DNA from: Schmidtea polychroa
Lineage: Eukaryota
Length of the DNA stretch: 64,000 nt
Assembly: GCA_044892525.1 (NCBI GenBank)
Contig: CM097885.1
Location: 4,838,001 to 4,902,000 of the forward strand
Reading direction: 5' to 3'
The notes under the pieces are model-generated. The model saw only the letters and a list, made by a program, of their open reading frames with translations, was not told where the DNA came from and did not search any database. Position 1 is the first letter of the stretch; each line of letters opens with the position of its first letter. Of the stretch, positions 3,736 to 31,085 are shown one piece after another. The position numbers and the translations under genes were made by a program.

Positions 3736-3810
<75 letters not shown>

Positions 3811-5023: not shown

Positions 5024-5288
5024 AGTAGTGAGGAATCTATGCACCCCAGCACCCCCACCCTCAAAAAAAACAGCGCTATTGACCCATATTTTCCACATTT
5101 ATATATGCTTTTTTACCCCATATTCTTCACTTTTTTTAACTTTTAAACTTTGTCCCCTATTGCCATTAACCCTTAATTTCTTCCCTTAAAAGTAAAAAAG
5201 TTCGGAATAGATGTATTTATAGATTAGTAATTCCGAGAAAAGGTAACGGGGTGCATAGATTCCTCACTACTTGGTTTTAAGGATTTAA
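5024..5288 (+). repeat. Polinton left TIR
   Basis: Reverse complement of 19282-19543 apart from homopolymer-length differences and a few substitutions. Followed by tandem TAAGGATT(T) repeats to about 5347. Confidence 0.95.
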
Positions 5289-5408
5289 GGATTTAAAGGA
5301 TTTAAGGATTTAAAGGATTTAAGGATTTAACGTTATAAGGATTTAAAAATTAATAAAAATTAATATCAAAACCAAAACATCGTATCCAACCAAAAAATTC
5401 TTTTAAAA

Positions 5409-8400: not shown

Positions 8401-9800
8401 GAAGAAAGATCTCGACTGAAGAACTTTCAGACTGGCAGATGGCTCAGGATAGATCGCCCTGTATAAAACTTTTATGCGATCAGACCGATAAAACTGATTA
8501 CCTTTGTCATTATAGACTCCTTCAGTTTTATCTCTCCCATGGAATGGTTTTAAAAAAAGTACATTCCATTATTAAATTTCGACAAGCCCCTTTTATGAAA
8601 AAATTCATAGAGGGAAATATTTTGAAAAGAAATGCAGCAAAGAGAGCTGGAAATGCATTTCTTGATATGATTTACAAACTCCTGAACAATGCGGTCTTTG
8701 GAAAGACCATGCAGAATATAGACAAGTACACACGTGTAGAGCTTTTGACCAATACATCCAAAGACCTTAATAGGTACAACCGGATAATTGGAAAGCCCAC
8801 ATTTAAAAATGCCGAGATATTCTCTAGTAACCTTATAGCTATAGAGATTAAAAACTCTGTAAAAACTTATAATAAACCAATCTTTATAGGTTTTTCAATT
8901 TTAGAACTTTCAAAGCTTCAAATGTATGAGACCTACTATGATGTTCTAGTACCCCATTTTGGAGATCGAATATCCATGCATGCTATGGACACTGATAGTA
9001 TGTTTTTAAAAGGTCATAGTAAAGATTTAAAAAAGGAAATAAGTGAAAACGAAACCTTAAATAAATTAATAAACAACTCTGGAGAATTATTTACTTTTAA
9101 AGATGAAAAACCAAATACTCCAATAACTGGAGGAGTGTTTATTAGACCTAAACAATATTCTCTTGAAATGAAAGACAAACCAATTATGAAAGAGCATACA
9201 ATAAAATTTATAATAGGGGAGGGAGAAGGATCTGTTGAAATAGATCACACATTTGAATATCCTTCATTCCCTGAAAACCCGAAAAGCTATAAAGAAAATA
9301 AAAGTAAAGGAATTCAAAAATCAGTGTCAAAAACCTTCACACATCAAGAGTATAAAGATTCATTAAATATAAATAAAAATAAAATTGCTAAAACCCATCA
9401 TCTTAAATCAGAGAAACATAATATATATCTTGAAGAGTGTAACAAGATTGCTATAACAAATTATGATGATAAAAGATTTATACTTTCTGACTTGAAGACA
9501 ACATTACCTATTGGAAATGATTTAATCCCTATAATAAAAAATCTTGATAAAATAAATGAAATTTATAACCTAGAGATTACAGACCTTCAACTTGCTAAAG
9601 TAGAAATCCAATATCCTGAAATATTAATTCCTAAACCTTTATATAATCAAGTTCAAAATATAAAACCTATAGAACTTAAATATTTTAATACTGATCCTGA
9701 ATATATCCAAGGACTAACACCAGAAGACTTTAAATCACATAAATTAATGTTAAAAAGCATTACTGCAGAAATAATTATAAATCAATTACGACTGGTCTAG
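5409..9800 (+). CDS. pPolB: Protein-primed family B DNA polymerase (1463 aa) with N-terminal C2H2 fingers, vOTU-like region and endonuclease VII-like insertion
   Basis: Exonuclease motifs YCDFE and FHNLFGYD; polymerase motifs YIDATALY, YKLLNNAVFGK, MDTDS; DNKCF...HYILI (vOTU-like); CWMC...DHDH...YRGAAHKNCN (EndoVII-like). Confidence 0.97.
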   Translation: MEAIFNCEICEKYFKNKTALTSHKKSKDHLIKANTLDDTNSKICTKCKDRYLFSGYKKHFKNCIGVPKNREIFECSACGKKMRIKSFYLRHIEDCGLEAKDSDSNSMTEKAEKLEFNWDDFNHTDVIAEVKRGPRSIMQYIRENKKKIISSMDDAIKKFGRSRFNVIKVKFTGNAKYWRGDDSIAMPLDVKIETSYKYLFSTKAGNKLVNDIAKELEEKQEQVEQELGESNLRFHSFQNIEIEYWRGAPPNPKSFIHTPFTSNHVINVQNKDNKCFQWSILAHLHPQATNPQRVQKYEEYESELIYPKDFSHPMKIEDVPAFEKLNNLKINIYQFIPTKITKTRKNKNYKQIIPIYISNMEISDEKREVDLLILEEGKADEEFDGEEYGEEVQSIHPKVMEAEEGISLEPEAESTASGGTMLDKKLHYILIKNFQSFMKGNTLIRGGICCKRCLYHSTSKLAAIKHERLCCKNQPALIKMPHKKNANMRFKNYSNLLEALGVVYCDFEAINVKLRRTKTNTVKLTKQLPSAYKMFFKSNYPELVESREYSFRGTSDKETLDHFVETLNNLEHELYIILKSNFPMNFSEEQEEEYKNATHCWMCKQEFEDEESTSELKVPDHDHFKIENNYRGAAHKNCNLNCKKPTHIPFIFHNLFGYDIHLFIKHLAANAKNSFKVIGLTKEKYKSIQYGCFKFLDSLNFLGMSLDGIAKTMNPEDFKYTKEHVLLKNNIPLEEYNTCLAKGIYPYDYIDSFEKYNELLPAQEDFFSVLTQSGISDQEYSRALKMWNLFNCRNLGEYTDMYLSLDVYILADCFETFSKAFELKPYNYITAPSLAWDILLYTIWTDEDVAVRNKTIELLVDLDMFNVYKHNIRGGISSVQGNREINANNFTTLYPKFFKDTDALYVEITNPEDREEILEGLSNPSEIMYIDATALYAGVMTQYLPIGKFTWEEPTEELIQEILKTPKNSQYGYVIECDLEYPNEIKSRTRFFPFAPVRRKISTEELSDWQMAQDRSPCIKLLCDQTDKTDYLCHYRLLQFYLSHGMVLKKVHSIIKFRQAPFMKKFIEGNILKRNAAKRAGNAFLDMIYKLLNNAVFGKTMQNIDKYTRVELLTNTSKDLNRYNRIIGKPTFKNAEIFSSNLIAIEIKNSVKTYNKPIFIGFSILELSKLQMYETYYDVLVPHFGDRISMHAMDTDSMFLKGHSKDLKKEISENETLNKLINNSGELFTFKDEKPNTPITGGVFIRPKQYSLEMKDKPIMKEHTIKFIIGEGEGSVEIDHTFEYPSFPENPKSYKENKSKGIQKSVSKTFTHQEYKDSLNINKNKIAKTHHLKSEKHNIYLEECNKIAITNYDDKRFILSDLKTTLPIGNDLIPIIKNLDKINEIYNLEITDLQLAKVEIQYPEILIPKPLYNQVQNIKPIELKYFNTDPEYIQGLTPEDFKSHKLMLKSITAEIIINQLRLV

Positions 9801-9824
9801 GAATTAGAATTTTAACACTATAAA

Positions 9825-10379
9825 ATGATGGAAACTAAAAATCAAGAAAATAACATTTTTGAAATTATAAAAAATATTACTAATTTAAAGGATAACAGAT
9901 GTAAAGGAATACAGAGAGTGGTTGCAAAAAATCTTTCTCATCAAGATTATATAGATACATTGAATCCAAATCATAAAGATAAAATTGATGAAATACATCA
10001 ACTTAAAAGTGAAAACCATGATATTCACTTGATAGAATCTCAAAAAATATCATTATCAAATTATGATGATAAGAGATTCATACTAAGTGATTTAAAGACA
10101 ACTCTACCTATTGGAAATAATTTAATCCCTATAATAAAAAATCTAGAAAAGTTGAATAAGTTATATGATACAAAGATTACTGATCTTGATATTTATAATG
10201 TTGAAATTATTTATCCCGGGAGAGAAATCGAGAAACCTTTATATTCTCAAGTTTTTAATCCTATATGTTTAGAACTTAAATATTTTAATACTGATCCTGA
10301 ATATATAAAAGGTCTAAGTGATAAAGAATTTAAAGATCATAAATTAATGATTCATAGGTTGGCTTTCAACCATAACTGA
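9825..10379 (+). CDS. Stand-alone paralog of the pPolB C-terminal (thumb plus tail) region, 184 aa
   Basis: Shares KGIQ, NYDDKRFILSDLKTTLPIGN and ELKYFNTDPEYI with the last ~165 aa of pPolB. Has its own TAAAATG start. Confidence 0.85.
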   Translation: MMETKNQENNIFEIIKNITNLKDNRCKGIQRVVAKNLSHQDYIDTLNPNHKDKIDEIHQLKSENHDIHLIESQKISLSNYDDKRFILSDLKTTLPIGNNLIPIIKNLEKLNKLYDTKITDLDIYNVEIIYPGREIEKPLYSQVFNPICLELKYFNTDPEYIKGLSDKEFKDHKLMIHRLAFNHN

Positions 10380-10473
10380 AACCAACGATATTTAATTTTT
10401 TAATAATAAAATGTCGACAATTAATTTAAGCAACTATAGCAACCTGATCTACTTTTTTAAAAATACACCCATT

Positions 10474-11085
10474 TTATAAGTAAGAATTCTTTAACCATTT
10501 TTCTCGAGATGTTTTTTTATTACTTATAACATTAGCCACCATGCCCTCCCTTTTTAATCTTATAACCTCATTCTTTATATCTTGTATTATTTGATTTGAT
10601 TTCATTATTTCTTCGTCTGTCAGGATTCCATCTTCCAAAGCTTTTAATTGAAATAAAAATAATTTAGAGATTCCTAATTCTATTGATAAACAAACTTCTC
10701 TATATAAACTTTTCTTTTTAGAAGTATAAGATAATGAAACTATTTCAGTTAAGAAACCATCAGCCACAGAAATACTTCCAAGTATTACAGGTGCAAGAGT
10801 AACAACTGGTAAAGTTATGGGTAAAATAACTGTTAATATTGCAGATGCAAATCCTAAAGAATAACCTATAACTTTTAAAACTGTATTCCTTTTATTCCAT
10901 CTATTTTTAATTTTTTTATAATGCTCTAATAAATCTTGTAAATGTAAGGTTTCTGATTTAAATTCTTTTACTCTCATAATTTCAAGTTCTGTGGGAGCCG
11001 AGGCCTTGGAACCTTTGTGACCTTCGGAATAATATCCTGATGATCTCAATTCTGGGTAAATTTTTTCTTCTCTTACTTCTTCCAT
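10474..11085 (-). CDS. Polinton membrane-associated protein (203 aa)
   Basis: N-terminal IYPEL, coiled coil, then a long hydrophobic hairpin VIGYSLGFASAILTVILPITLPVVTLAPVILG. Lies in the virion gene block. Confidence 0.7.
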   Translation of the reverse strand: MEEVREEKIYPELRSSGYYSEGHKGSKASAPTELEIMRVKEFKSETLHLQDLLEHYKKIKNRWNKRNTVLKVIGYSLGFASAILTVILPITLPVVTLAPVILGSISVADGFLTEIVSLSYTSKKKSLYREVCLSIELGISKLFLFQLKALEDGILTDEEIMKSNQIIQDIKNEVIRLKREGMVANVISNKKTSREKWLKNSYL

Positions 11086-11093
11086 TTTAATAA

Positions 11094-12104
11094 TTAAAAA
11101 AATAAGACTTTATTCTTCTGAGCACCATCTGGTACCAATACTCGGATATCAAAAGAAACTCTTGTTGAGAGGATGTCTTTATACAATTCTCTCAATGCTT
11201 TACGAACTTCATCAACATCAACCTTTTTTTCATAAAATATTAAATCTATATATTGTACAAGTGAACTAGAAAAATGAATATTCTTACTTTTAACTTTATG
11301 TAGTCCATGTGAATGAGTATTAACATACCAATCTCCGTGTGGTAAATCATAACTAGTCATTATAACATCACCCTTTTCAAGCTTACTATTATAATCACAT
11401 TTCACAAACCATTTCATTCTTTCATTATCATCATCAAACAAAAAGAAATAAGGATCAATAATTTTTACAACCATAAAAACACCCCATTCTTTACTGTTTG
11501 TTGTTATTAAACTTGGTTCTATAAAATGTTTATATGTATGGGGTAATAATGTTTTATTCTGTTCTAATTCAGCAGCTCTTTTTCTAATACTATGTGTGGT
11601 GTTAATGTGTGTTCCATGAGACTCTAAATTTGAAATTCTTTTATTAAATGATGTAATCATCTCATTTATTATATTATATATTGCATTAAATTTAGTATTC
11701 ATAATTTGTTTATCTTTAGAATTTAATATAGCAGTATTTAACTTTACAACTTGTTCAGTTAACAGACTTTGTAACTTGTCAAATTTATCATTAAATCGTT
11801 GTTCGATATTATTAAGCTTTGATTCCATTGAATCAATTTTTGTTGTTAATGAACTTTCAATTCTTGTTGTTGTTAAATCAGTATATTTTTTAACACCATC
11901 TACATATTTCTTATTAACTGCATCAGCTTCATCAGTTGGAAAAGATAATTCTTTTATCTTGTGTCCATTTAAAATTAAATCACCCTTCATTGAATCACCT
12001 CTTTCATTAATATATTTATTTTCTGTTAAAGTTAATATTTCTTCTGTATTAAACCCTGTTTTTATTGTTCCACCACCTCTATTACATGGAATATAAGAAC
12101 TCAT
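11094..12104 (-). CDS. Fibre/spike-like protein (336 aa)
   Basis: MKGDLILNGHKIKELSFPTDEADAVNKKYVD resembles trimeric fibre/adhesin neck motifs, followed by a long coiled coil and a globular C-terminus. Adjacent to penton. Confidence 0.6.
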   Translation of the reverse strand: MSSYIPCNRGGGTIKTGFNTEEILTLTENKYINERGDSMKGDLILNGHKIKELSFPTDEADAVNKKYVDGVKKYTDLTTTRIESSLTTKIDSMESKLNNIEQRFNDKFDKLQSLLTEQVVKLNTAILNSKDKQIMNTKFNAIYNIINEMITSFNKRISNLESHGTHINTTHSIRKRAAELEQNKTLLPHTYKHFIEPSLITTNSKEWGVFMVVKIIDPYFFLFDDDNERMKWFVKCDYNSKLEKGDVIMTSYDLPHGDWYVNTHSHGLHKVKSKNIHFSSSLVQYIDLIFYEKKVDVDEVRKALRELYKDILSTRVSFDIRVLVPDGAQKNKVLFF

Positions 12105-12144
12105 TTATTAATAATTTAAAATGGACGGAGTCCCCTGAGAGGAA

Positions 12145-12909
12145 CTAAACCTGTTTCAAATGTAAATACATTGAAATCTCTTCTCCATTAAAATCAATCA
12201 ATTCTCCTTCTTGATTAAGAATTTTAAAATTAATATCCATTATATATTTTCTACATAAAGGTAAATAATTTGGAGGATTCATTCTTTCAACTATTTTATA
12301 TCCCATAGGAACTGTGTTTGAGGGAAAGGAATATAAAACATTTGTTTGTTTACCATTATTATAAGAACCTGTTATACAATCGCAATGAATATTTATTGTG
12401 TTTGTATTTATTATTTTTATAATATGTTCTGATGTTATTATTTTATCTTCTTTTATTGTTATATCCATAGGTTTAAATCCTAAAACTGTGTGAAAGAAAC
12501 AATTATCTAAAAAACTAATTTTTATATTCTTCAAAGTCATTACACATTTTGAAGTTGGTATATCCATTTTAATTTTAATACCTTCATTTGTTTTTTTAGA
12601 AAGTATATCATTTAAATCTTTTATCTCATATGCCCCAGGTTCTATTGTTATAATTTCTGGTTTATGCCCATCACGAGTTTGAATAGTAAATTTATTATTA
12701 TCTTTAGTTATATTAAAAATAGTATTATAAGCACAAAACCATAATAGCCCCAATTCATAATTTAAATTTTGATCTAATTTAATTGAATCTTGAAAGTTTA
12801 TAGTAAACTCTGATTCTTTTGAATTTATAGATAAAGTTCTTGAATATTTATCTGACATTATGTTTACCATTTTTTTTAAATTATCTTCCGGAGGGTTGTG
12901 AAGCTCCAT
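12145..12909 (-). CDS. PX: Minor capsid protein (penton)
   Basis: IEPGAYEI, VLGF, INIHCDCITGSYNNG, LYSF and NQEGELIDFNGEEISMYLHLK are typical Polinton penton motifs. Confidence 0.88.
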   Translation of the reverse strand: MELHNPPEDNLKKMVNIMSDKYSRTLSINSKESEFTINFQDSIKLDQNLNYELGLLWFCAYNTIFNITKDNNKFTIQTRDGHKPEIITIEPGAYEIKDLNDILSKKTNEGIKIKMDIPTSKCVMTLKNIKISFLDNCFFHTVLGFKPMDITIKEDKIITSEHIIKIINTNTINIHCDCITGSYNNGKQTNVLYSFPSNTVPMGYKIVERMNPPNYLPLCRKYIMDINFKILNQEGELIDFNGEEISMYLHLKQV

Positions 12910-12957
12910 TTCTTTAGTAGTAAATTCATATAGTAAAAATCCTTATAGTAAAAATCC

Positions 12958-13422
12958 TTATAGTAGAGATTCTAGATCATTATAAATTTCTTGAATTATA
13001 GATTCAAAATCCTGCGTATGCCCCTTTCCCTCTCCCTTATTCAATCTATACAAAACATATAAACTTAAAATACCACATATTTTAGTATTCAAAGGTTGAA
13101 CTTGTAAAGAGTTAAAAGTATAACCATTTGGGGAATCAATCGGAGAACCCCTCAAGAGATAATCTTCAACTTCTTTAGTAGGTTTAATCCCAAAAGAATC
13201 AAAGTAGATAGATTTCTTATATATACAAACCCAATGAGATCCTTTTTCATTTGAATTTTGATAATTGATTATTATATTCAGGGGACTCTCCAGACTTGAT
13301 AATTCATCATTCATTAATATTTTAATTTTTAAATTTAAATAATTTGCATAATCTTTTAAATCAAAATTTGTTTTTGCATTTATTCCAAATGTTTTTAAAA
13401 AATCTAATATTGAAGGAGTCAT
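12958..13422 (-). CDS. PRO: Adenain-like cysteine maturation protease
   Basis: GSHWVC, YFDSFG, QVQ and ICG supply the His/Asp/Gln/Cys catalytic residues. Confidence 0.93.
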   Translation of the reverse strand: MTPSILDFLKTFGINAKTNFDLKDYANYLNLKIKILMNDELSSLESPLNIIINYQNSNEKGSHWVCIYKKSIYFDSFGIKPTKEVEDYLLRGSPIDSPNGYTFNSLQVQPLNTKICGILSLYVLYRLNKGEGKGHTQDFESIIQEIYNDLESLL

Positions 13423-13444
13423 TTTGTATTTTAAAACTTCGTAT

Positions 13445-14326
13445 TTATAACTTCGTATACTTATTAAATTTATCTTTTGAAATTATTCCTTGTTTTAACA
13501 AATCTTTAGAAATCTTTAAAATATCAGAATCTAAATTATTATGTCCTGCTTTCCTTGCAGCTAATAGTTTTCTTAATTCAATAAAAAGATTGATGGGATT
13601 TGGTTTACCACCTTCACTAATTAATCCCTCTCCCTCTGTAACAACATAAATCTTTTCATTTTTATTTAAATAATTCTTTAAATCTTGAATATATTTTGCT
13701 TTAGAACTAGCTCTTATTAATCTTATTAAATTTAAATATTTTTTAATTTCTTCAACATCATCTGAAGAATATCCACAAAGTAATCTATAAAAATCATCTG
13801 TAAATTCAAAGTCTAAATATTCATTATTATAAACATTTTGTGAATGAATACGTGATTTATTTTCTGAATTTGAATATAAAGTAAAGTTTTGTTTATTAAT
13901 TGTTATTATTTGATATCCTTCAGTATTAGTATTAAATGTGGGTCTAATTGAAGGAGGTAAATCATCTCTAATTTTAGGATCAACTTTAAGAGGTTTTGTT
14001 TTTAAAAACATTTCTTCTTCTTCCACATTAGAAATTCTTCTGCGTTTTCTTTGATTTCTTTCAGGATGGTTTTCACTGGATTCTTTTTCTTTATCCTGCC
14101 ACTCTAGTTCTTTTATTTTTTGTTTTTTATCTTCTAACTCTTTAAATTTTGCTTGCTCATTGAAATCTTCCAACTCTTTTATAGCTTTAATTGTTGGCCC
14201 CTGTTGTTGTGTTATTACCTCATTTAATATTATAGATTCAGCATGTTGAGTTGTATCTTTTTTATTATATTTATCTTGTTCTGATTGTAATTTTTTTAAA
14301 AGTGCTAATCTTTCTTCATATACCAT
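13445..14326 (-). CDS. Conserved Polinton protein, putative core protein (293 aa)
   Basis: N-terminal coiled coil, NLS-like RKRRR, GEGL putative cleavage motif, C-terminal LRKLLAARKAGHN motif. Confidence 0.65.
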   Translation of the reverse strand: MVYEERLALLKKLQSEQDKYNKKDTTQHAESIILNEVITQQQGPTIKAIKELEDFNEQAKFKELEDKKQKIKELEWQDKEKESSENHPERNQRKRRRISNVEEEEMFLKTKPLKVDPKIRDDLPPSIRPTFNTNTEGYQIITINKQNFTLYSNSENKSRIHSQNVYNNEYLDFEFTDDFYRLLCGYSSDDVEEIKKYLNLIRLIRASSKAKYIQDLKNYLNKNEKIYVVTEGEGLISEGGKPNPINLFIELRKLLAARKAGHNNLDSDILKISKDLLKQGIISKDKFNKYTKL

Positions 14327-14348
14327 TTTAATGGTATCAAAAATGGTA

Positions 14349-14927
14349 TCATAGTTCGAAGGGCTTCAAGTATAATCCTTTACCATTTTTAGTTTTACAA
14401 AGGCATCCATTCTTTAAAGATTTACATATTTTTTTTAAATCTTCTTTATCTTTTGAAGATAAAGATTCAGATGTAGAAATTTGATTTTTTAAAAAATCAT
14501 TTAAACCTCTACCTTTATAAGGATCAAGATAGAGACCTTTGCCCTGAGACTTTTGCCGACTCCCCTCATATGGATTAAGATAGAGACCCTTTCCAACGGA
14601 CACTCCCCCTTTAGCTTGCCCTACCTTCTTCATTGAATCGATTTCAGTTTGTAGTTTTTCTTTTTCTAGGTCTGTCTTTTGAGATTCTTTAGCTTTTTGA
14701 ACTGTAGTTGCAATTCCTCCAGCTATTCCAGCAGCACCTGATAAACCAGCAATGATTGCAGGTATTAAAGCAGCTAATGGAAGAATGCCACCTTCTTTAG
14801 CTTCGTGGATCTTCGCTCTAACTTGTTCTTTTACATGTTTTCCAATAAAATATTTTTTACCATCAATTACTACTGATTTATTTTTATTTGAATTTATTAA
14901 TTCTTGCAAAGATTCTTCAGTTGTCAT
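14349..14927 (-). CDS. Core/cement protein with an adenovirus pX-like motif (192 aa)
   Basis: GGILPLAALIPAIIAG resembles adenoviral pX GGFLP. Three GKGLYLxP repeats are putative adenain sites. Confidence 0.75.
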   Translation of the reverse strand: MTTEESLQELINSNKNKSVVIDGKKYFIGKHVKEQVRAKIHEAKEGGILPLAALIPAIIAGLSGAAGIAGGIATTVQKAKESQKTDLEKEKLQTEIDSMKKVGQAKGGVSVGKGLYLNPYEGSRQKSQGKGLYLDPYKGRGLNDFLKNQISTSESLSSKDKEDLKKICKSLKNGCLCKTKNGKGLYLKPFEL

Positions 14928-14942
14928 TTTATAATAAATAAA

Positions 14943-15749
14943 ATGGATGTACGAAGTCCAATAATTTGGAAACCAATTTTAAATAGACATAAGAGTAAAT
15001 TTAATAATAAAGTATTTCCTGATAATTTTAGATTATTAATTGTTGGTTCTTCTGGATGTGGAAAGAATGTACTTGTTTTGAGAATGTTACTTGAAGATGA
15101 TTTTTTAGATTATAATAATTTAATCTTTTATTCTACAACCATAAATCAACCAGAATTACAACTTTTGAAATGTGGATTTGAAAATAAATTAACTAAAAAA
15201 GCAATAATTGATATTTTTAAAAATCAACATAGGTGTCCTGAAGAAGTTTTTCAACCTTGTGATATGGTTGATTGGTATAAGGAAAAGATTTTAGAATCAG
15301 ATATTAGTAATAAAAATGATTATATTTGTGAAGAAGGGCAGGAGGCAATTCAAGTTTTATTCTCTAATAAACCTGAAGATGTTTTACATTGTGATTTACT
15401 TCCTAAAGATAAAAAGAATCTAGTTATATTTGATGATGTTGTCAACATGAAAAATCAAGAGATTCAAAAGAGTTACTTTACACGAGGTCGACATAATAAT
15501 TGTAATGTTATTTATATATCTCAAACATATTATGCTTTAGATAAAAATTCAATAAGAAATAATTCCAATTGTTTTATATTTTTTAAATTAGATCGCCGTG
15601 ATAAGAATATGATTTATAATGATTTATTTTCAAATGTTGAACCTGATAAGAATATGTTTGATATGTTTGTTGATAATCATTGGAAAGAAAAATATAATTA
15701 TATTTATTTGGATAGAGAAGAAGCTGAAATATGGAAAAGTTTGTTTTAG
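14943..15749 (+). CDS. ATP: A32/FtsK-like genome packaging ATPase
   Basis: Walker A GSSGCGKN, Walker B LVIFDD, RGRH, YISQ and IRNN. Likely start is the ATG at 14943; the ORF track starts at a TTG. Confidence 0.93.
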   Translation: MDVRSPIIWKPILNRHKSKFNNKVFPDNFRLLIVGSSGCGKNVLVLRMLLEDDFLDYNNLIFYSTTINQPELQLLKCGFENKLTKKAIIDIFKNQHRCPEEVFQPCDMVDWYKEKILESDISNKNDYICEEGQEAIQVLFSNKPEDVLHCDLLPKDKKNLVIFDDVVNMKNQEIQKSYFTRGRHNNCNVIYISQTYYALDKNSIRNNSNCFIFFKLDRRDKNMIYNDLFSNVEPDKNMFDMFVDNHWKEKYNYIYLDREEAEIWKSLF

Positions 15750-15760
15750 GGCTTGTCGAC

Positions 15761-17146
15761 TTAAAAATCTGTTTTCTGTAGTTCATTATTATAAAATCTA
15801 CCTAATATTTTTTCATTATTTAAATCAAAGATGCTATATGTTATTGGAGTTGTATAATTTATTTTATTTATAATAAAAATTTCATTTGTCCATTTTGCTG
15901 TGAATCCTTTTTCAAATTTATTTTTATATTTAAATATTCTTACTCGGTCACCAATTTTAAACTTTGGTTTTTCAATAACATCATTTTCAATATTTACCAC
16001 TTTAATGGTTTCAGGCTTCATGGAAGCATTTAAAGGTGTTAATTTTATAGAACTATGTACATCATTATTATATTCATTTACAATCTTTTGTAACAATTCA
16101 TTGTTCCATTTTTGTTTTCCAATAGCAGTAAAATATTTCCACATTTTATTTTTTAATGTTCTATTTAATCTTTCAACTACGACTGCTTTTCCTTCGTTTT
16201 CTGTTGAATAGAATTTAATATCATTTTCATTTAAAAACTTTGTAAAAACTTTGTTATAAAATTCTGTTCCTTTATCACACCATAAATATTTTGGGATTCT
16301 TTGATTTTCTTCAAATATATTTTCAAATGCTTCTGTAATAGAATATCCTGTTTTATTTTCTAAACACCTTGCAAAAGCAAATCTTGTATATAAATCTATT
16401 ACAGTTAAAATTATTTTATATTTTTCAGGGTCTGATGATTTGGGCATAAAGACTAAATCTGCAGACCATGTTTGATCTTTTTCATGTACTTGAACTTTTA
16501 AATATTTTTTATTTTTTCTAAATTCATGGTGTAATTCCTTTGCATATTTTATTTCTGATTCTGTTGGGGTTTGTAAACTAGTCTTGGATATATTCTCAAG
16601 GGATCTTTCAATGTCTGCTTGTTCGATAATCTTTTTATAAGCAACATCTTTTGCTATTCTAGGAAGTCTTGCACCCATGGTGATCGGACTGTGTCCTAAG
16701 CCTATGAAAATCTTACCTTTCATTGCTAATTTAACTAGAGCTCTTTGAATCTTTTCTTGGGTTGATGGATTTTGGATACTATTTAAATCATGTATTAAAT
16801 TCACATCTGCAACATGTCTATCTCTAAGATTTGTTGAATTGTATGCAATGTCATGTTTAAAAGCTGCTTGATCAATTCTATTTATTGGTTCTTCTCCTTG
16901 TTTGGGATTATTATTTTCATCTAATCTAATATCTAATCTTGTTCCTGGTCCGGTGTAGTTGTGTTTAAATAAATGTCTTTCACCTGGATATTTTTCTGTA
17001 GTAAAAGGTTTTAATATTGAAGATGTTGTTTTTGAAGATTGTAGATCGCCTCCTGTATGTTTTTTAGTTTTTAAATGACTTGCTTTATGATGTCTTGTAA
17101 CTTGACAATTACAAGTTTCACATCTCCAATATTTATTTAGAGACAT
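15761..17146 (-). CDS. INT: Retroviral-type integrase with N-terminal C2H2 finger and parvovirus-like phospholipase A2 domain
   Basis: DDE motifs WSADL, WCDKGTEF, VVERLNRTLK and C-terminal KFKIGDRVRI. PLA2-like HNYTGPGT...PINRIDQAAFKHDIAY. Confidence 0.95.
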   Translation of the reverse strand: MSLNKYWRCETCNCQVTRHHKASHLKTKKHTGGDLQSSKTTSSILKPFTTEKYPGERHLFKHNYTGPGTRLDIRLDENNNPKQGEEPINRIDQAAFKHDIAYNSTNLRDRHVADVNLIHDLNSIQNPSTQEKIQRALVKLAMKGKIFIGLGHSPITMGARLPRIAKDVAYKKIIEQADIERSLENISKTSLQTPTESEIKYAKELHHEFRKNKKYLKVQVHEKDQTWSADLVFMPKSSDPEKYKIILTVIDLYTRFAFARCLENKTGYSITEAFENIFEENQRIPKYLWCDKGTEFYNKVFTKFLNENDIKFYSTENEGKAVVVERLNRTLKNKMWKYFTAIGKQKWNNELLQKIVNEYNNDVHSSIKLTPLNASMKPETIKVVNIENDVIEKPKFKIGDRVRIFKYKNKFEKGFTAKWTNEIFIINKINYTTPITYSIFDLNNEKILGRFYNNELQKTDF

Positions 17147-17175
17147 TTTAAAATGTTAAAATATCAGGGATTATA

Positions 17176-17776
17176 TTAAGAATCTCCCCTAACATTTTCG
17201 ATTATTGAAATCTTTCCACCATATAATTTCATTTCTATTTTCTTTTCTTCTAATATTAATGTATATACTTTAGCTTTAAAATTAGAATCCTTTGTTACAT
17301 GAAGTGTAACATCAACATTATTTATGGCTAATCGATCATCTTGGTCTGATACATTTATACAAAATATAGAATATAAATTTTTGAAATCTTCTAAACTTAA
17401 TTGCGGTTCAACTTTGAAATCATAACATGTTTCAATATAATTTAGATATGGGAATATGTTTTCATTATTTTCAATATTAAATTCCATTCTATTTATTGGA
17501 TAATAAGAACTATTTAATTGAATTTGTATTGTTTTTAAATTATCATCTCCAATCTTTTGAATAAATAGATTGTTATTTTTTTGGAAAGATGAATCTGTTT
17601 CTTTGAATCCAATGTTTGAAGAGATTGAAAAACTATATCACCCCTACGATTTAAGTTTGCAATAGATCCTGAAGTTGGGGAGATTTTAAGTACATCGTTT
17701 TTCTTGATTTCATGAGTAAATTCTTTATTATAATCAAGATTTAATTTTTTTTTTCTTGAATTTTTATATTATTCAT
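17176..17776 (-). pseudogene. PY: Major capsid protein (double jelly-roll) with a large internal deletion and frameshifts
   Basis: ATG at 17776, frameshift in an A10 run, then N-terminal LNLDYNKEFTHEIKKNDVLKISPTSGSIANLNRRGDIVF joined out of frame near 17614 to C-terminal IGFKET...IQLNSSYYP...FKNLYSIFCINVSDQ, which continues into the 103-aa ORF 17176-17487. Confidence 0.8.
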
Positions 17777-17832
17777 TTCTATATATTAAAATTTGCACAC
17801 ACAAAATAGGATTAATTAAATATATTATGTAA

Positions 17833-17912
17833 GCCATTATAGCGGAGTGGGAATAGGCTTCAATTTTATCACCGGGAGTACCGGGTTCAATTTTCGATTT
17901 TGGTCAATTTTT
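17833..17912 (+). ncRNA. tRNA-like Pol III cassette 1 (putative)
   Basis: A box TAGCGGAGTGG, degenerate B box GGGTTCAATT, tRNA-like spacing, T-runs downstream. Confidence 0.4.
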
Positions 17913-18075
17913 ATCGATATTTTTTTTCAACGGAATCTGATTCAGCGTACTGATTTTAGTATATATTTAAATTTTCAGATGGATCTGAGTGGTAGTTGTC
18001 GAGAAAATGAATAATTAATTATCAATTTCATCAATAAATAGTCACACATTAACAACTTATTTTATATTGAGTATA

Positions 18076-18156
18076 GCTCTAATAGCTTAGTGGTAATAGC
18101 ACTCGACTGCATTGCCAATACCAATGGGTTCAAATCCCATTTCGGTCATTTTTTTT
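18076..18156 (+). ncRNA. tRNA-Cys-like Pol III cassette 2 (putative)
   Basis: A box TAGCTTAGTGG (18083-18093), D stem GCT/AGC, GACTGCA anticodon-loop remnant, perfect T arm ATGGG-TTCAAAT-CCCAT, T8 terminator. Anticodon and acceptor stems do not pair. Confidence 0.6.
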
Positions 18157-18320
18157 CAAATTTTTTTTTAAACAAAATATTGATCAGCATACTCGATTTA
18201 GTACTTGTACAAATTTTAAAGGTGATTGGTCAACGGCAACTCTTGGAAATTTAAGATCAAAAACGTTTTAACTTAAGCTACCAAAAATTAATATATCCAA
18301 TAAAAAAAATATTTATAAAA

Positions 18321-18617
18321 ATGGATGAGTTAAAAGAAAGAATGAGAAATGAATTGAATGAAGTTAAACATAAGAGAATGAAAAGAAGAGAAGAAGAACC
18401 ATTAGAATACATCAAAGAGTTGATGGTAGATAATGAAAAGTATCGACATTTTTATATGAAGGCTGTAGATGTTGCTGATATAAGATTGAAGAAAATGAAA
18501 CAATTACAGGAAAGAGTTAAAGAACTTGAATCGATTATTTATAGTCTAAAAAATGACAAAAATTCAAACCTTGATGGCGCAGTGGGAATAGACTGGCACA
18601 GTGGTTCAAATGGATAG
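18321..18617 (+). CDS. Small coiled-coil hypothetical protein (98 aa)
   Basis: Charged helical ORF with the same TAAAA-ATG start context as other Polinton genes. Confidence 0.55.
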   Translation: MDELKERMRNELNEVKHKRMKRREEEPLEYIKELMVDNEKYRHFYMKAVDVADIRLKKMKQLQERVKELESIIYSLKNDKNSNLDGAVGIDWHSGSNG

Positions 18618-18667
18618 TGGTTCAAATGGATAGTGGTTCAAATCACATCTGAGGTTAGTTTTTTTTT
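18567..18667 (+). ncRNA. tRNA-like Pol III cassette 3 with triplicated B box (putative)
   Basis: A box TGGCGCAGTGG, three AGTGGTTCAAAT copies at 16-bp spacing, AACCT/AGGTT closing stem, T9 terminator. Confidence 0.45.
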
Positions 18668-19281
18668 CAACATAAAATAATATTAAAAATTTGAAAATAA
18701 TATTGAAAATAGTGTGGGTATCTTATATTTATAAAGTACTTGTATATTTTATTTTATTTTTTTATTAATTAATTATTTTTTAAACATAAATATGAAAAAA
18801 AAAATATTGAAACGGGTGATGGTGGCGAACCGGTAATTATCGCCACCTGTCTTTCGAACACCCCCGGATCGATCCCGGTAATGTGCACATTTATTTCTCA
18901 GTTGTTTTCGGACCTCTTTCGAATTCGCTTTCGAATTCATTTGTACTTTCGAGCAGCACACTTAAAACGCCGATGAAATCGTATTCGAGCGAGAAGCGAA
19001 TAATAAGGTGTGCTGCTATTATCGGATTGATTCTGATGTATGAGTCTGGCCAGCTTGTATATTGGAAGAGATTTGATAAACGAAAGAGGTTGAATAAAAA
19101 AAAATGATCCGGATCAAAAAAAAAACTGTTGAGAGGACAGTGAAAAAAAAAAAAAAAACCACTGTCCTCTCAGAGCAGTTTTACTATTTCATAAAATTTT
19201 TTATTTTTAAAACTTTCAGGCGACCTAGATCATTATGAATTAGGTAATCTGATATTCTTATAACATTAAATCCTTATAACA

Positions 19282-19543
19282 TTAAATCCTTAAGACCAAG
19301 TAGTGAGGAATCTATGCACCCCGTTACCTTTTCTCGGAATTACTAATCTATAAATACATCTATTCCGAACTTTTTTACTTTTAAGGGAAGAAATTAAGGG
19401 TTAATGGCAATAGGGGACAAAGTTTAAAAGTTAAAAAAAGTGAAGAATATGGGGTAAAAAAGCATATAAATGTGGAAAATATGGGTCAATAGCGCTGTTT
19501 TTTTGAGGGTGGGGGTGCTGGGGTGCATAGATTCCTCACTACT
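19282..19543 (-). repeat. Polinton right TIR
   Basis: Inverted copy of 5024-5288, ends ACTACT followed by ATAAAC. Confidence 0.95.
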
Positions 19544-24146: not shown

Positions 24147-24383
24147 ATAAATATTTCGATAAATTTTTTTGTCTCTTTCATTGATAAAATTTAATTTAAC
24201 TTTTCAAACGTTATTTAAACTTTTTTTATTAGTATCAATTGTTTTAATTATAAAATTCCTAATCAAATAAGATGAATATTATTTTTCATCGTTCATTTAA
24301 GCTTTTCCTCTTAGCTAAAAATGTCGACAATTAATTTAAGCAACTATAGCAACCTGATCTACTTTTTTAAAAATACACCCATT

Positions 24384-24995
24384 TTATAAGTAAGAATTCT
24401 TTAACCATTTTTCTCGAGATGTTTTTTTATTACTTATAACATTAGCCACCATGCCCTCCCTTTTTAATCTTATAACCTCATTCTTTATATCTTGTATTAT
24501 TTGATTTGATTTCATTATTTCTTCGTCTGTCAGGATTCCATCTTCCAAAGCTTTTAATTGAAATAAAAATAATTTAGAGATTCCTAATTCTATTGATAAA
24601 CAAACTTCTCTATATAAACTTTTCTTTTTAGAAGTATAAGATAATGAAACTATTTCAGTTAAGAAACCATCAGCCACAGAAATACTTCCAAGTATTACAG
24701 GTGCAAGAGTAACAACTGGTAAAGTTATGGGTAAAATAACTGTTAATATTGCAGATGCAAATCCTAAAGAATAACCTATAACTTTTAAAACTGTATTCCT
24801 TTTATTCCATCTATTTTTAATTTTTTTATAATGCTCTAATAAATCTTGTAAATGTAAGGTTTCTGATTTAAATTCTTTTACTCTCATAATTTCAAGTTCT
24901 GTGGGAGCCGAGGCCTTGGAACCTTTGTGACCTTCGGAATAATATCCTGATGATCTCAATTCTGGGTAAATTTTTTCTTCTCTTACTTCTTCCAT
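24384..24995 (-). CDS. Polinton membrane-associated protein, copy 2
   Basis: Same protein as 10474-11085. Confidence 0.7.
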   Translation of the reverse strand: MEEVREEKIYPELRSSGYYSEGHKGSKASAPTELEIMRVKEFKSETLHLQDLLEHYKKIKNRWNKRNTVLKVIGYSLGFASAILTVILPITLPVVTLAPVILGSISVADGFLTEIVSLSYTSKKKSLYREVCLSIELGISKLFLFQLKALEDGILTDEEIMKSNQIIQDIKNEVIRLKREGMVANVISNKKTSREKWLKNSYL

Positions 24996-25003
24996 TTTAA
25001 TAA

Positions 25004-26014
25004 TTAAAAAAATAAGACTTTATTCTTCTGAGCACCATCTGGTACCAATACTCGGATATCAAAAGAAACTCTTGTTGAGAGGATGTCTTTATACAATTCT
25101 CTCAATGCTTTACGAACTTCATCAACATCAACCTTTTTTTCATAAAATATTAAATCTATATATTGTACAAGTGAACTAGAAAAATGAATATTCTTACTTT
25201 TAACTTTATGTAGTCCATGTGAATGAGTATTAACATACCAATCTCCGTGTGGTAAATCATAACTAGTCATTATAACATCACCCTTTTCAAGCTTACTATT
25301 ATAATCACATTTCACAAACCATTTCATTCTTTCATTATCATCATCAAACAAAAAGAAATAAGGATCAATAATTTTTACAACCATAAAAACACCCCATTCT
25401 TTACTGTTTGTTGTTATTAAACTTGGTTCTATAAAATGTTTATATGTATGGGGTAATAATGTTTTATTCTGTTCTAATTCAGCAGCTCTTTTTCTAATAC
25501 TATGTGTGGTGTTAATGTGTGTTCCATGAGACTCTAAATTTGAAATTCTTTTATTAAATGATGTAATCATCTCATTTATTATATTATATATTGCATTAAA
25601 TTTAGTATTCATAATTTGTTTATCTTTAGAATTTAATATAGCAGTATTTAACTTTACAACTTGTTCAGTTAACAGACTTTGTAACTTGTCAAATTTATCA
25701 TTAAATCGTTGTTCGATATTATTAAGCTTTGATTCCATTGAATCAATTTTTGTTGTTAATGAACTTTCAATTCTTGTTGTTGTTAAATCAGTATATTTTT
25801 TAACACCATCTACATATTTCTTATTAACTGCATCAGCTTCATCAGTTGGAAAAGATAATTCTTTTATCTTGTGTCCATTTAAAATTAAATCACCCTTCAT
25901 TGAATCACCTCTTTCATTAATATATTTATTTTCTGTTAAAGTTAATATTTCTTCTGTATTAAACCCTGTTTTTATTGTTCCACCACCTCTATTACATGGA
26001 ATATAAGAACTCAT
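25004..26014 (-). CDS. Fibre-like protein, copy 2
   Basis: Same protein as 11094-12104. Confidence 0.6.
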   Translation of the reverse strand: MSSYIPCNRGGGTIKTGFNTEEILTLTENKYINERGDSMKGDLILNGHKIKELSFPTDEADAVNKKYVDGVKKYTDLTTTRIESSLTTKIDSMESKLNNIEQRFNDKFDKLQSLLTEQVVKLNTAILNSKDKQIMNTKFNAIYNIINEMITSFNKRISNLESHGTHINTTHSIRKRAAELEQNKTLLPHTYKHFIEPSLITTNSKEWGVFMVVKIIDPYFFLFDDDNERMKWFVKCDYNSKLEKGDVIMTSYDLPHGDWYVNTHSHGLHKVKSKNIHFSSSLVQYIDLIFYEKKVDVDEVRKALRELYKDILSTRVSFDIRVLVPDGAQKNKVLFF

Positions 26015-26054
26015 TTATTAATAATTTAAAATGGACGGAGTCCCCTGAGAGGAA

Positions 26055-26819
26055 CTAAACCTGTTTCAAATGTAAATACATTGAAATCTCTTCTCCATTA
26101 AAATCAATCAATTCTCCTTCTTGATTAAGAATTTTAAAATTAATATCCATTATATATTTTCTACATAAAGGTAAATAATTTGGAGGATTCATTCTTTCAA
26201 CTATTTTATATCCCATAGGAACTGTGTTTGAGGGAAAGGAATATAAAACATTTGTTTGTTTACCATTATTATAAGAACCTGTTATACAATCGCAATGAAT
26301 ATTTATTGTGTTTGTATTTATTATTTTTATAATATGTTCTGATGTTATTATTTTATCTTCTTTTATTGTTATATCCATAGGTTTAAATCCTAAAACTGTG
26401 TGAAAGAAACAATTATCTAAAAAACTAATTTTTATATTCTTCAAAGTCATTACACATTTTGAAGTTGGTATATCCATTTTAATTTTAATACCTTCATTTG
26501 TTTTTTTAGAAAGTATATCATTTAAATCTTTTATCTCATATGCCCCAGGTTCTATTGTTATAATTTTTGGTTTATGCCCATCACGAGTTTGAATAGTAAA
26601 TTTATTATTATCTTTAGTTATATTAAAAATAGTATTATAAGCACAAAACCATAATAGCCCCAATTCATAATTTAAATTTTGATCTAATTTAATTGAATCT
26701 TGAAAGTTTATAGTAAACTCTGATTCTTTTGAATTTATAGATAAAGTTCTTGAATATTTATCTGACATTATGTTTACCATTTTTTTTAAATTATCTTCCG
26801 GAGGGTTGTGAAGCTCCAT
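26055..26819 (-). CDS. PX: Penton, copy 2
   Basis: One E>K change relative to copy 1. Confidence 0.88.
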   Translation of the reverse strand: MELHNPPEDNLKKMVNIMSDKYSRTLSINSKESEFTINFQDSIKLDQNLNYELGLLWFCAYNTIFNITKDNNKFTIQTRDGHKPKIITIEPGAYEIKDLNDILSKKTNEGIKIKMDIPTSKCVMTLKNIKISFLDNCFFHTVLGFKPMDITIKEDKIITSEHIIKIINTNTINIHCDCITGSYNNGKQTNVLYSFPSNTVPMGYKIVERMNPPNYLPLCRKYIMDINFKILNQEGELIDFNGEEISMYLHLKQV

Positions 26820-26867
26820 TTCTTTAGTAGTAAATTCATATAGTAAAAATCCTTATAGTAAAAATCC

Positions 26868-27332
26868 TTATAGTAGAGATTCTAGATCATTATAAATTTC
26901 TTGAATTATAGATTCAAAATCCTGCGTATGCCCCTTTCCCTCTCCCTTATTCAATCTATACAAAACATATAAACTTAAAATACCACATATTTTAGTATTC
27001 AAAGGTTGAACTTGTAAAGAGTTAAAAGTATAACCATTTGGGGAATCAATCGGAGAACCCCTCAAGAGATAATCTTCAACTTCTTTAGTAGGTTTAATCC
27101 CAAAAGAATCAAAGTAGATAGATTTCTTATATATACAAACCCAATGAGATCCTTTTTCATTTGAATTTTGATAATTGATTATTATATTCAGGGGACTCTC
27201 CAGACTTGATAATTCATCATTCATTAATATTTTAATTTTTAAATTTAAATAATTTGCATAATCTTTTAAATCAAAATTTGTTTTTGCATTTATTCCAAAT
27301 GTTTTTAAAAAATCTAATATTGAAGGAGTCAT
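26868..27332 (-). CDS. PRO: Adenain protease, copy 2
   Basis: Same protein as 12958-13422. Confidence 0.93.
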   Translation of the reverse strand: MTPSILDFLKTFGINAKTNFDLKDYANYLNLKIKILMNDELSSLESPLNIIINYQNSNEKGSHWVCIYKKSIYFDSFGIKPTKEVEDYLLRGSPIDSPNGYTFNSLQVQPLNTKICGILSLYVLYRLNKGEGKGHTQDFESIIQEIYNDLESLL

Positions 27333-27354
27333 TTTGTATTTTAAAACTTCGTAT

Positions 27355-28236
27355 TTATAACTTCGTATACTTATTAAATTTATCTTTTGAAATTATTCCT
27401 TGTTTTAACAAATCTTTAGAAATCTTTAAAATATCAGAATCTAAATTATTATGTCCTGCTTTCCTTGCAGCTAATAGTTTTCTTAATTCAATAAAAAGAT
27501 TGATGGGATTTGGTTTACCACCTTCACTAATTAATCCCTCTCCCTCTGTAACAACATAAATCTTTTCATTTTTATTTAAATAATTCTTTAAATCTTGAAT
27601 ATATTTTGCTTTAGAACTAGCTCTTATTAATCTTATTAAATTTAAATATTTTTTAATTTCTTCAACATCATCTGAAGAATATCCACAAAGTAATCTATAA
27701 AAATCATCTGTAAATTCAAAGTCTAAATATTCATTATTATAAACATTTTGTGAATGAATACGTGATTTATTTTCTGAATTTGAATATAAAGTAAAGTTTT
27801 GTTTATTAATTGTTATTATTTGATATCCTTCAGTATTAGTATTAAATGTGGGTCTAATTGAAGGAGGTAAATCATCTCTAATTTTAGGATCAACTTTAAG
27901 AGGTTTTGTTTTTAAAAACATTTCTTCTTCTTCCACATTAGAAATTCTTCTGCGTTTTCTTTGATTTCTTTCAGGATGGTTTTCACTGGATTCTTTTTCT
28001 TTATCCTGCCACTCTAGTTCTTTTATTTTTTGTTTTTTATCTTCTAACTCTTTAAATTTTGCTTGCTCATTGAAATCTTCCAACTCTTTTATAGCTTTAA
28101 TTGTTGGCCCCTGTTGTTGTGTTATTACCTCATTTAATATTATAGATTCAGCATGTTGAGTTGTATCTTTTTTATTATATTTATCTTGTTCTGATTGTAA
28201 TTTTTTTAAAAGTGCTAATCTTTCTTCATATACCAT
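27355..28236 (-). CDS. Conserved Polinton protein, copy 2
   Basis: Same protein as 13445-14326. Confidence 0.65.
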   Translation of the reverse strand: MVYEERLALLKKLQSEQDKYNKKDTTQHAESIILNEVITQQQGPTIKAIKELEDFNEQAKFKELEDKKQKIKELEWQDKEKESSENHPERNQRKRRRISNVEEEEMFLKTKPLKVDPKIRDDLPPSIRPTFNTNTEGYQIITINKQNFTLYSNSENKSRIHSQNVYNNEYLDFEFTDDFYRLLCGYSSDDVEEIKKYLNLIRLIRASSKAKYIQDLKNYLNKNEKIYVVTEGEGLISEGGKPNPINLFIELRKLLAARKAGHNNLDSDILKISKDLLKQGIISKDKFNKYTKL

Positions 28237-28258
28237 TTTAATGGTATCAAAAATGGTA

Positions 28259-28837
28259 TCATAGTTCGAAGGGCTTCAAGTATAATCCTTTACCATTTTT
28301 AGTTTTACAAAGGCATCCATTCTTTAAAGATTTACATATTTTTTTTAAATCTTCTTTATCTTTTGAAGATAAAGATTCAGATGTAGAAATTTGATTTTTT
28401 AAAAAATCATTTAAACCTCTACCTTTATAAGGATCAAGATAGAGACCTTTGCCCTGAGACTTTTGCCGACTCCCCTCATATGGATTAAGATAGAGACCCT
28501 TTCCAACGGACACTCCCCCTTTAGCTTGCCCTACCTTCTTCATTGAATCGATTTCAGTTTGTAGTTTTTCTTTTTCTAGGTCTGTCTTTTGAGATTCTTT
28601 AGCTTTTTGAACTGTAGTTGCAATTCCTCCAGCTATTCCAGCAGCACCTGATAAACCAGCAATGATTGCAGGTATTAAAGCAGCTAATGGAAGAATGCCA
28701 CCTTCTTTAGCTTCGTGGATCTTCGCTCTAACTTGTTCTTTTACATGTTTTCCAATAAAATATTTTTTACCATCAATTACTACTGATTTATTTTTATTTG
28801 AATTTATTAATTCTTGCAAAGATTCTTCAGTTGTCAT
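28259..28837 (-). CDS. pX-like core protein, copy 2
   Basis: Same protein as 14349-14927. Confidence 0.75.
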   Translation of the reverse strand: MTTEESLQELINSNKNKSVVIDGKKYFIGKHVKEQVRAKIHEAKEGGILPLAALIPAIIAGLSGAAGIAGGIATTVQKAKESQKTDLEKEKLQTEIDSMKKVGQAKGGVSVGKGLYLNPYEGSRQKSQGKGLYLDPYKGRGLNDFLKNQISTSESLSSKDKEDLKKICKSLKNGCLCKTKNGKGLYLKPFEL

Positions 28838-28852
28838 TTTATAATAAATAAA

Positions 28853-29659
28853 ATGGATGTACGAAGTCCAATAATTTGGAAACCAATTTTAAATAGACAT
28901 AAGAGTAAATTTAATAATAAAGTATTTCCTGATAATTTTAGATTATTAATTGTTGGTTCTTCTGGATGTGGAAAGAATGTACTTGTTTTGAGAATGTTAC
29001 TTGAAGATGATTTTTTAGATTATAATAATTTAATCTTTTATTCTACAACCATAAATCAACCAGAATTACAACTTTTGAAATGTGGATTTGGAAATAAATT
29101 AACTAAAAAAGCAATAATTGATATTTTTAAAAATCAACATAGGTGTCCTGAAGAAGTTTTTCAACCTTGTGATATGGTTGATTGGTATAAGGAAAAGATT
29201 TTAGAATCAGATATTAGTAATAAAAATGATTATATTTGTGAAGAAGGGCAGGAGGCAATTCAAGTTTTATTCTCTAATAAACCTGAAGATGTTTTACATT
29301 GTGATTTACTTCCTAAAGATAAAAAGAATCTAGTTATATTTGATGATGTTGTCAACATGAAAAATCAAGAGATTCAAAAGAGTTACTTTACACGAGGTCG
29401 ACATAATAATTGTAATGTTATTTATATATCTCAAACATATTATGCTTTAGATAAAAATTCAATAAGAAATAATTCCAATTGTTTTATATTTTTTAAATTA
29501 GATCGCCGTGATAAGAATATGATTTATAATGATTTATTTTCAAATGTTGAACCTGATAAGAATATGTTTGATATGTTTGTTGATAATCATTGGAAAGAAA
29601 AATATAATTATATTTATTTGGATAGAGAAGAAGCTGAAATATGGAAAAGTTTGTTTTAG
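28853..29659 (+). CDS. ATP: Packaging ATPase, copy 2
   Basis: One E>G change relative to copy 1. Confidence 0.93.
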   Translation: MDVRSPIIWKPILNRHKSKFNNKVFPDNFRLLIVGSSGCGKNVLVLRMLLEDDFLDYNNLIFYSTTINQPELQLLKCGFGNKLTKKAIIDIFKNQHRCPEEVFQPCDMVDWYKEKILESDISNKNDYICEEGQEAIQVLFSNKPEDVLHCDLLPKDKKNLVIFDDVVNMKNQEIQKSYFTRGRHNNCNVIYISQTYYALDKNSIRNNSNCFIFFKLDRRDKNMIYNDLFSNVEPDKNMFDMFVDNHWKEKYNYIYLDREEAEIWKSLF

Positions 29660-29670
29660 GGCTTGTCGAC

Positions 29671-31056: not shown

Positions 31057-31085
31057 TTTAAAATGTTAAAATATCAGGGATTATA

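Follow-up and report, generated by a model that had tools for sequence, protein, structure and literature searches.

Among described Pol III RNAs of viruses, adenovirus VA RNA is about 160 nt long and inhibits PKR, its main target and a vertebrate protein, or saturates Dicer/RISC. The TMERs of MHV68, according to excerpts of PMC4337559, form a Pol III-transcribed cluster of tRNA-like units at one genome end, with an uncharged role and pre-miRNA-like hairpins downstream, and excerpts of PMC12498455 give the EBER B box as RGDWCRARTCC. Closer to the Polintons (for background, see parts of PMC6431247 and PMC8532177), protist polinton-like viruses carry tRNA, 5S and rRNA genes (PMC12220804, in excerpt) and tRNAs were flagged in MELD viruses (PMC8502044, in excerpt), thus non-coding RNA cargo as such is already known.

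We analyzed a 64,000-nt stretch of the Schmidtea polychroa genome (the window), in which a Polinton bears at one end four units with Pol III type-2 anatomy, i.e., A and B boxes at suitable spacing and an oligo-T run. Three of these (units 1–3) had been listed in a preliminary description, which missed the longer unit 4. Clustering of Pol III tRNA-like units at one end recalls the TMERs, as does a pre-miRNA-like 25-bp hairpin (z = −4.85) downstream of the unit 4 promoter; unlike in the TMERs, the unit 4 head has no cloverleaf, tRNA score or tRNA homology, and units 1–3 have no hairpin trailer. In contrast to VA RNA I/II, the predicted RNA of unit 4 is ~390 nt long with internal A runs and its gene lies at or in a terminal repeat, and no Rfam VA match was detected in the window up to an E value of 5. 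EBV EBERs and the BLV miRNA cluster are likewise Pol III non-coding RNAs with variant boxes, and the EBER consensus allows GGATCRA; they differ in having vertebrate hosts and no homology to unit 4, and the BLV B box lies beyond the terminator. Protist polinton-like and MELD viruses are similar as Polinton relatives that carry host non-coding RNA sequence, but theirs are canonical tRNAs, interpreted as codon supply, or captures without function, whereas the present array has decayed tRNAs and a main unit predicted to make a long structured RNA of no known family. Finally, tRNA-derived SINEs (B2-type, polyadenylated) share the A/B box head, A-rich 3′ part and oligo-T terminator, but unit 4 occupies a fixed position in a DNA element and has conserved long helices, and no dispersed copies with target duplications were seen at six sampled loci. 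Any likeness of unit 4 to VA RNAs, EBERs and TMERs (PMC4337559, PMC8223928 and PMC12498455, each in excerpt) would be one of function, by analogy only.

In line with the preliminary description, no Pol III small RNAs of Polintons were found in the literature searched, although repeat-library annotations in supplements could mention the module described below. Nor did this literature describe, for animal Polintons, any Pol III RNA that is long and structured, the capture of rDNA-spacer tRNA-like units by a transposon, or a link between mir-754 and planarian repeats.

The Polinton and its units 1–3

The Polinton context claimed earlier was borne out by terminal repeats, target duplication and core genes. 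The element (5024..19543, no strand assigned; 14.5 kb) has terminal inverted repeats of ~282 bp with 97% identity, ends in AGTAGT...ACTACT, thus with the AG/CT termini, and is flanked by a 6-bp target duplication, ATAAAC. It encodes pPolB, an A32-type ATPase, a PLA2-integrase and a capsid remnant; PF03175, PF00665 and PF04665 (pPolB, rve integrase and packaging ATPase) exceed the cut-off, and the double jelly-roll capsid PF21738 is weak in this broken copy and above the cut-off in another. The broken major capsid gene (17176..17720, − strand) stands head-to-head with the cassette array and has lost ~0.68 kb internally at 17612, a deletion absent from 28 other copies. A 98-codon ORF (18321..18617, + strand) without a Pfam match above the cut-off stops within unit 3. 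A second, partial copy of the same insertion (24318..33410, no strand assigned) is a tandem segmental duplicate with 99.9% identity and is thus not independent evidence. Genome-wide (781 Mb), first-look searches gave 2,929–3,322 candidates for the core genes, and all 143 ATPase matches scored from 2,929 candidates were 100% identical; this is a very large family of recent origin. When foreign capsid proteins were used to search for diverged families, mostly members of the same superfamily were recovered.

Several other features of the element and the window were noted. The terminal 24 bases (5024–5047 at the left end) recur inverted ~250 bp inside each terminal repeat (5252–5272 and 19299–19322), such that each end can form a large fold-back, and several other terminal-repeat types have the same layout with a different sequence. 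The integrase (15761–17146) combines, in one frame, a parvovirus-type PLA2 domain with a zinc finger-like stretch at its N terminus, and a 184-codon ORF (9825–10379) is a 75% duplicate of the 3′ end of pPolB. The window also contains four near-identical intronless ABC-F-type ATPase genes (102–1445, 22527–24146, 36394–38013 and 58944–60563), two of which were duplicated along with the Polinton in a 13.9-kb tandem unit, a very AT-rich array of 300–650-bp repeats (53600–55400), and a weak mir-753 match (55770–55832; E = 0.025, below cut-off).

The A boxes, B boxes and oligo-T runs of the three units listed earlier were all found in place. Across the 64 kb, a strict A+B pattern matched only units 1–3, unit 4 (at 18823) and the duplicates of these at a distance of 13.9 kb, in comparison with a mean of 0.01 matches in 200 locally shuffled windows and none in 2,000 shuffles of the 1.6-kb region, so the boxes are far beyond chance. 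Unit 1 (17833..17912, + strand), a pseudo-tRNA, has its A box at 17840, a B box at 17884 that lacks C61 of the consensus, and T runs at 17908 (T5) and 17920 (T8). Unit 2 (18076..18156, + strand; A box 18083, B box 18127, T8 at 18149) is a decayed tRNA-Cys(GCA), in agreement with the preliminary description: it scored 32.4 bits with the Rfam tRNA model (gathering score 29), its T arm is paired and its acceptor and anticodon stems are broken, and 25 of 29 columns at its start match host tRNA-Cys(GCA) by eye. The 5′ side of its acceptor is deleted in 7 of 12 sampled copies. No complete cloverleaf is present and ARAGORN called no tRNA, which together with the broken stems of unit 2 excludes a functional tRNA. 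Unit 3 (18566..18667, + strand) has an A box (18575) identical to that of host tRNA-iMet, B boxes at 18603, 18619 and 18635 in a 16-nt repeat, the first only 17 nt from the A box, and T9 at 18659; having three B boxes is a peculiarity of this copy, and 58 of 61 copies carry two. Host tRNA genes themselves form very long tandem arrays (C1:79.33–79.39 Mb, C1:269.25–269.29 Mb, C4:76.66 Mb, C140, C333 and C474), with 1,222 tRNA-iMet and 989 tRNA-Cys pattern matches.

The tRNA derivation and promoter anatomy proposed for the units were supported, as was their relationship by duplication, with local alignment z scores of 5–10 among units 1–3 and −0.8 to 5.8 against host tRNA-iMet, -Lys and -Arg. Units 1 and 2 share a downstream block (79 aligned columns), as had been described. 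The A-box sequence said to be common to units 1 and 3 was confirmed in part: 20 of 26 bases are shared, but AGTGGGAATAG is one of two unit 3 alleles (28 A and 31 C at the variable column among 61 copies). Units 1–3 were all detected in the 30 best DNA matches (unit 3 partly deleted in two) and in all 12 copies chosen by their ATPase alone, and the alignments across copies proposed earlier showed that A and B boxes are kept.

Folding relative to shuffles was not significant for unit 1 (z = +0.4) and unit 3 (z = −0.6), which would make them poor RNA decoys; unit 2 gave z = −2.2. Units 1–3 are thus not the best candidates for the VA-RNA analogues that they had been suggested to be, and the idea fits unit 4 much better. 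Unit 3 is often duplicated, and no other part of the arm varies as much (mean pairwise difference 0.095, vs 0.007–0.037 in neighboring segments; 29 copies). Variants common to at least 3 of 61 copies affect 3 of its 30 box positions (R9, N59 and one Y60) and 20 of the 45 others, a contrast for which the Fisher p value of 0.002 overstates the case, given that the copies share ancestry and are not independent. This would be the expected look of a promoter or TFIIIC site kept as DNA.

Homology of units 1 and 2 to the host rDNA spacer

Units 1 and 2 lie in a 497-bp block (17788..18284, + strand) that is 94–96% identical to host rDNA intergenic spacer, and all 80 bases of unit 1 are identical to a spacer copy. 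In the host, the block is located between the 28S end and the 18S start in tandem repeats, with unit 2 in one to three 243-bp tandem copies. At one such locus (L082), unit 1 and three tandem copies of unit 2 are found between the 18S gene and the 28S end, antisense to the rRNA; its spacer sequence was also detected at the tip of another contig and in a tandem array of 13.5 kb. Occurrences of the spacer-side junction number 772, some of them in a satellite. Upstream of unit 1, this spacer (~45–125 of L082) and that of L092 contain one more tRNA-like unit, likewise with a B box, and the tRNA-like units of this spacer type are all antisense to the rRNA. When unit 2 matches elsewhere were sampled, all seven dispersed picks were Polintons and the eighth was rDNA.

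The preliminary description had foreseen two objections, that the units might belong to a host SINE family outside Polintons and that sister Polintons might lack them. Units 1 and 2 do match host DNA outside Polintons, but this is rDNA spacer and not a SINE. The second objection holds for units 1 and 2, which were absent from eight of eight divergent picks, and in five of the eight for all units; other Polinton lineages join 17787 directly to 18284.

As for direction, a satellite contains unit 2 and spacer flank with 87% identity over 449 nt, a split older than that between Polinton and spacer, and three Polintons (L094, L095 and L101) carry other spacer pieces at other places. Both observations favor transfer from host to Polinton, although they do not prove it, because unit 3 is a paralogue and a second rDNA type is without such units. 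Dugesiids are known for two-type rDNA, and two 18S types are present in this genome; in the one spacer of the second type examined (L121), no such units were detected. Units 3 and 4 were absent from one spacer of each of the two types, by which the second rDNA type was rejected, for that one spacer, as their source. The homology itself is evident, and from sequence comparison we favor the view that units 1 and 2 were captured from the host rDNA spacer by one Polinton lineage. Antisense tRNA-Cys pseudogenes in one of two rDNA spacer types, together with repeated capture by a DNA element, would constitute an unusual route of sequence flow.

Unit 4 and the terminal module

Unit 4 (18808..19202, + strand) begins ~140 bp downstream of unit 3; its boxes are at 18823 (A) and 18866 (B), and its predicted start and end delimit a multi-helix RNA of ~390 nt. 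Its B box (GGATCGA) is the variant used by host tRNA-iMet, and a tRNA-iMet origin is unsupported beyond these 7 nt. The head has a D-arm hairpin and the B box, without an anticodon arm or an Rfam tRNA score, and showed no homology beyond the boxes to four tRNA-like sequences and three host tRNAs (z ≤ 1.3). Downstream are A runs at 19096, 19116 and 19143, the first preceded by an AATAAA-like sequence, and T6 at 19197; a T4 at 18905 could terminate transcription prematurely. No Rfam family matched unit 4 and no conserved ORF was found in it, a 55-codon minus-strand ORF being rejected as not conserved.

The fold of unit 4 (−131.6 kcal/mol, z = −8.0) was not equaled by any of 100 shuffles. It comprises the 25-bp G-U-rich hairpin (19019..19079), which folds on the + strand only (z = −4.85 vs +1.1), a 12-bp helix, and a 3′ hairpin on the + strand with an oligo-A loop (19122..19182), in which an A-U/G-C swap at 19134/19168 is compensatory. 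In a set of 50 full-length copies, a variant common to at least three copies is found at 8 of the 87 pairs called with confidence; pairing is kept in six of these (two A-U/G-C swaps and four G-U/Watson–Crick changes) and broken in two. One of the swapped pairs is A-C in 4 of the 50 copies, and each swap may be a single event. Variable sites were not significantly fewer at paired than at unpaired positions (10/174 vs 20/188, p = 0.13). The A box is intact in 48 of the 50 copies and the B box (GGATCGATYC) in 46, the variation being at Y60 and in the stem and not in the box. Outside this genome, unit 4 relatives were not detected in viral contigs and the exact motif was absent from metagenome contigs; among 18 metagenome capsid loci, most with little upstream DNA, nine were scanned for box pairs and gave one doubtful match.

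Units 3 and 4 form a 660-bp module with fixed ends (18547..19205, + strand). A 23-mer of unit 4 matched 2,986 times genome-wide, and the six loci sampled from these matches are all Polinton ends; a single host source gene could be among the 2,986. The module adjoins several terminal-repeat types and is kept, with all four units present, in the 5 of 12 sampled copies where the neighboring 98-codon ORF is deleted. It is dispensable, as it is present in three and absent from five of eight divergent sisters, and one terminal-repeat type occurs both with it (L074) and without it (L078 and L080). In a module-less sister lineage (L073 and L077), other minus-strand ORFs are located between the capsid gene and the terminal repeat. 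In some elements the module sits inside terminal repeats of ~1 kb at both ends, e.g., in L097/L098 (96% identity over 1,033 nt), and outward-facing module pairs 13–18 kb apart numbered 13 among the first 100 matches, with about one expected. B boxes or whole units are duplicated in L016, L026, L063, L079 and L097.

Hints of transcription were sought in contigs of three runs, which stem from two studies and are guessed to be RNA, aligned over 17000–19550. Contigs of all three cover unit 4 with alleles of several Polinton lineages. Summed contig depth over 18892–19149 was 2,756–11,266 in X1 and 3,598–19,975 in X2, tens of times that of the capsid gene (at most 590 and 214, respectively) despite the similar copy numbers of unit 4 and the core genes. 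As contig depth is unable to rank parts or to show strand or ends, transcription of unit 4 is no more than weakly hinted at. Little or no cover was seen over units 1 and 2, the 18720–18805 spacer and the terminal repeat (none at all in X10); this proves nothing, given that such libraries lose short RNAs without poly(A) tails. Cover of unit 3 may come from mRNA of the 98-codon ORF and that of unit 2 from rDNA, so neither was used as evidence. Contigs of X2 have oligo-A loose ends at 19104.

Possible roles of the arm

We consider it possible, with a rough probability of 45%, that unit 4 is an accessory Pol III non-coding RNA gene that serves the element, in a manner functionally like VA RNAs, EBERs or TMERs and not homologous to them. 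An accessory array of Pol III type-2 promoters, built in two steps, would then occupy the arm that runs from the capsid promoter to the right terminal repeat. The first would be the older 660-bp module, in which TFIIIC would bind the internal A and B boxes of unit 4 and Pol III would make a ~370–390-nt non-coding + strand RNA that, judging from the anatomy, ends near the oligo-T at 19197. This RNA would carry long imperfect hairpins and, by analogy, would most likely be a decoy bound by Dicer/Argonaute, or a source of small RNAs processed by them, that blunts host RNA silencing to the benefit of the element. Unit 3 would mainly act as DNA, providing extra TFIIIC sites with inter-box sequence free to drift. 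In the second step, one lineage would later have captured 497 bp of host rDNA spacer already holding two tRNA-Cys-derived pseudogenes, such that units 1 and 2 would be inessential, either as passengers or as additional TFIIIC sites. In a planarian, according to the part of PMC8532177 consulted, Polintons are targeted by SMEDWI-2 piRNA silencing, which would provide a motive for a counter-silencing RNA.

An unlikely but serious alternative is that units 3 and 4 represent a Pol III gene captured from the host, or a SINE-like parasite, that spreads by recombination among Polinton ends, its RNA being a by-product of no benefit. The patchy presence of the module and the several pieces of host spacer DNA at several places in L094, L095 and L101 are in line with this, as are the tRNA-type head, A-rich tracts and terminator, which resemble polyadenylated Pol III SINE RNAs (excerpts of PMC12358842), and the capture of host rRNA genes, judged non-functional, by protist polinton-like viruses (excerpts of PMC12220804). 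Against it, the pair-preserving changes and the retention of boxes arose among Polinton copies, none of the six sampled loci is outside Polinton ends, and the module has no match in either rDNA spacer examined or in Rfam families.

It is less probable still that the array acts as DNA, with TFIIIC/Pol III sites that stop heterochromatin and keep the capsid promoter (or the whole element, if in both repeats) open and with incidental RNA. tDNA has barrier activity, and the boxes kept without a fold in units 1 and 3, the duplicated B boxes and whole units, and the elements flanked at both ends by the module would all fit; left unexplained are 300 nt of strand-specific, pair-conserving structure in unit 4. 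A barrier role for units 1–3 and an RNA role for unit 4 are compatible and can both hold.

We regard as improbable a role in cis, in which unit 4 would function within a Pol II transcript (as the 3′ end of the 98-codon ORF mRNA) or as single-stranded DNA during strand-displacement replication or packaging. Its position beside or in terminal repeats, the AATAAA-like sequence before the first A run and the oligo-A ends in X2 are suggestive, but the A and B boxes are intact at tRNA spacing, the module is kept without the ORF, the hairpin relies on many G-U pairs, and sister elements replicate without the module. Very improbably, the hairpin RNA would instead feed a host siRNA/piRNA pathway that keeps the family in check, and would persist because a restrained element does less harm to its host, as the long dsRNA-like helices and the planarian piRNA targeting of Polintons (PMC8532177, in part) might suggest, but the module-bearing lineages are the abundant ones (2,986 unit 4 matches vs 2,929–3,322 core-gene candidates).

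Beyond the accessory RNA gene that we prefer, a more tentative and rather doubtful extension would be that this Polinton independently evolved a gene of the VA/TMER class for an abundant ~390-nt Pol III RNA that disarms or feeds Dicer/Argonaute/PIWI silencing, that this gene spreads between lineages as a terminal module and explains the burst to ~3,000 copies, and that the rDNA-spacer promoters reinforce it. In a distant Polinton (L104, a metagenome contig with a 50% identical capsid), a mir-754-like hairpin (1810–1889, − strand; E = 1.4e-7; 48.6 bits, lower than the gathering score of 84) is followed by a T7 run. It hints that small-RNA genes recur in this virus-like group, and a planarian miRNA family may be Polinton-linked; a mir-754 search of the present genome gave no match, with the controls equally silent.

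If the accessory RNA reading is true, a gene for a structured Pol III RNA would be, to our knowledge, the first candidate for non-coding counter-defense in animal Polintons. It would match RNAs of adenoviruses and herpesviruses by convergence, in a host that lacks the interferon targets of vertebrates. Given that lineages in this one genome have no, one or two copies of the module, the question is testable by existing methods. It bears on how animal Polintons stay active under piRNA/RNAi surveillance and on whether they are virus-like in behavior.
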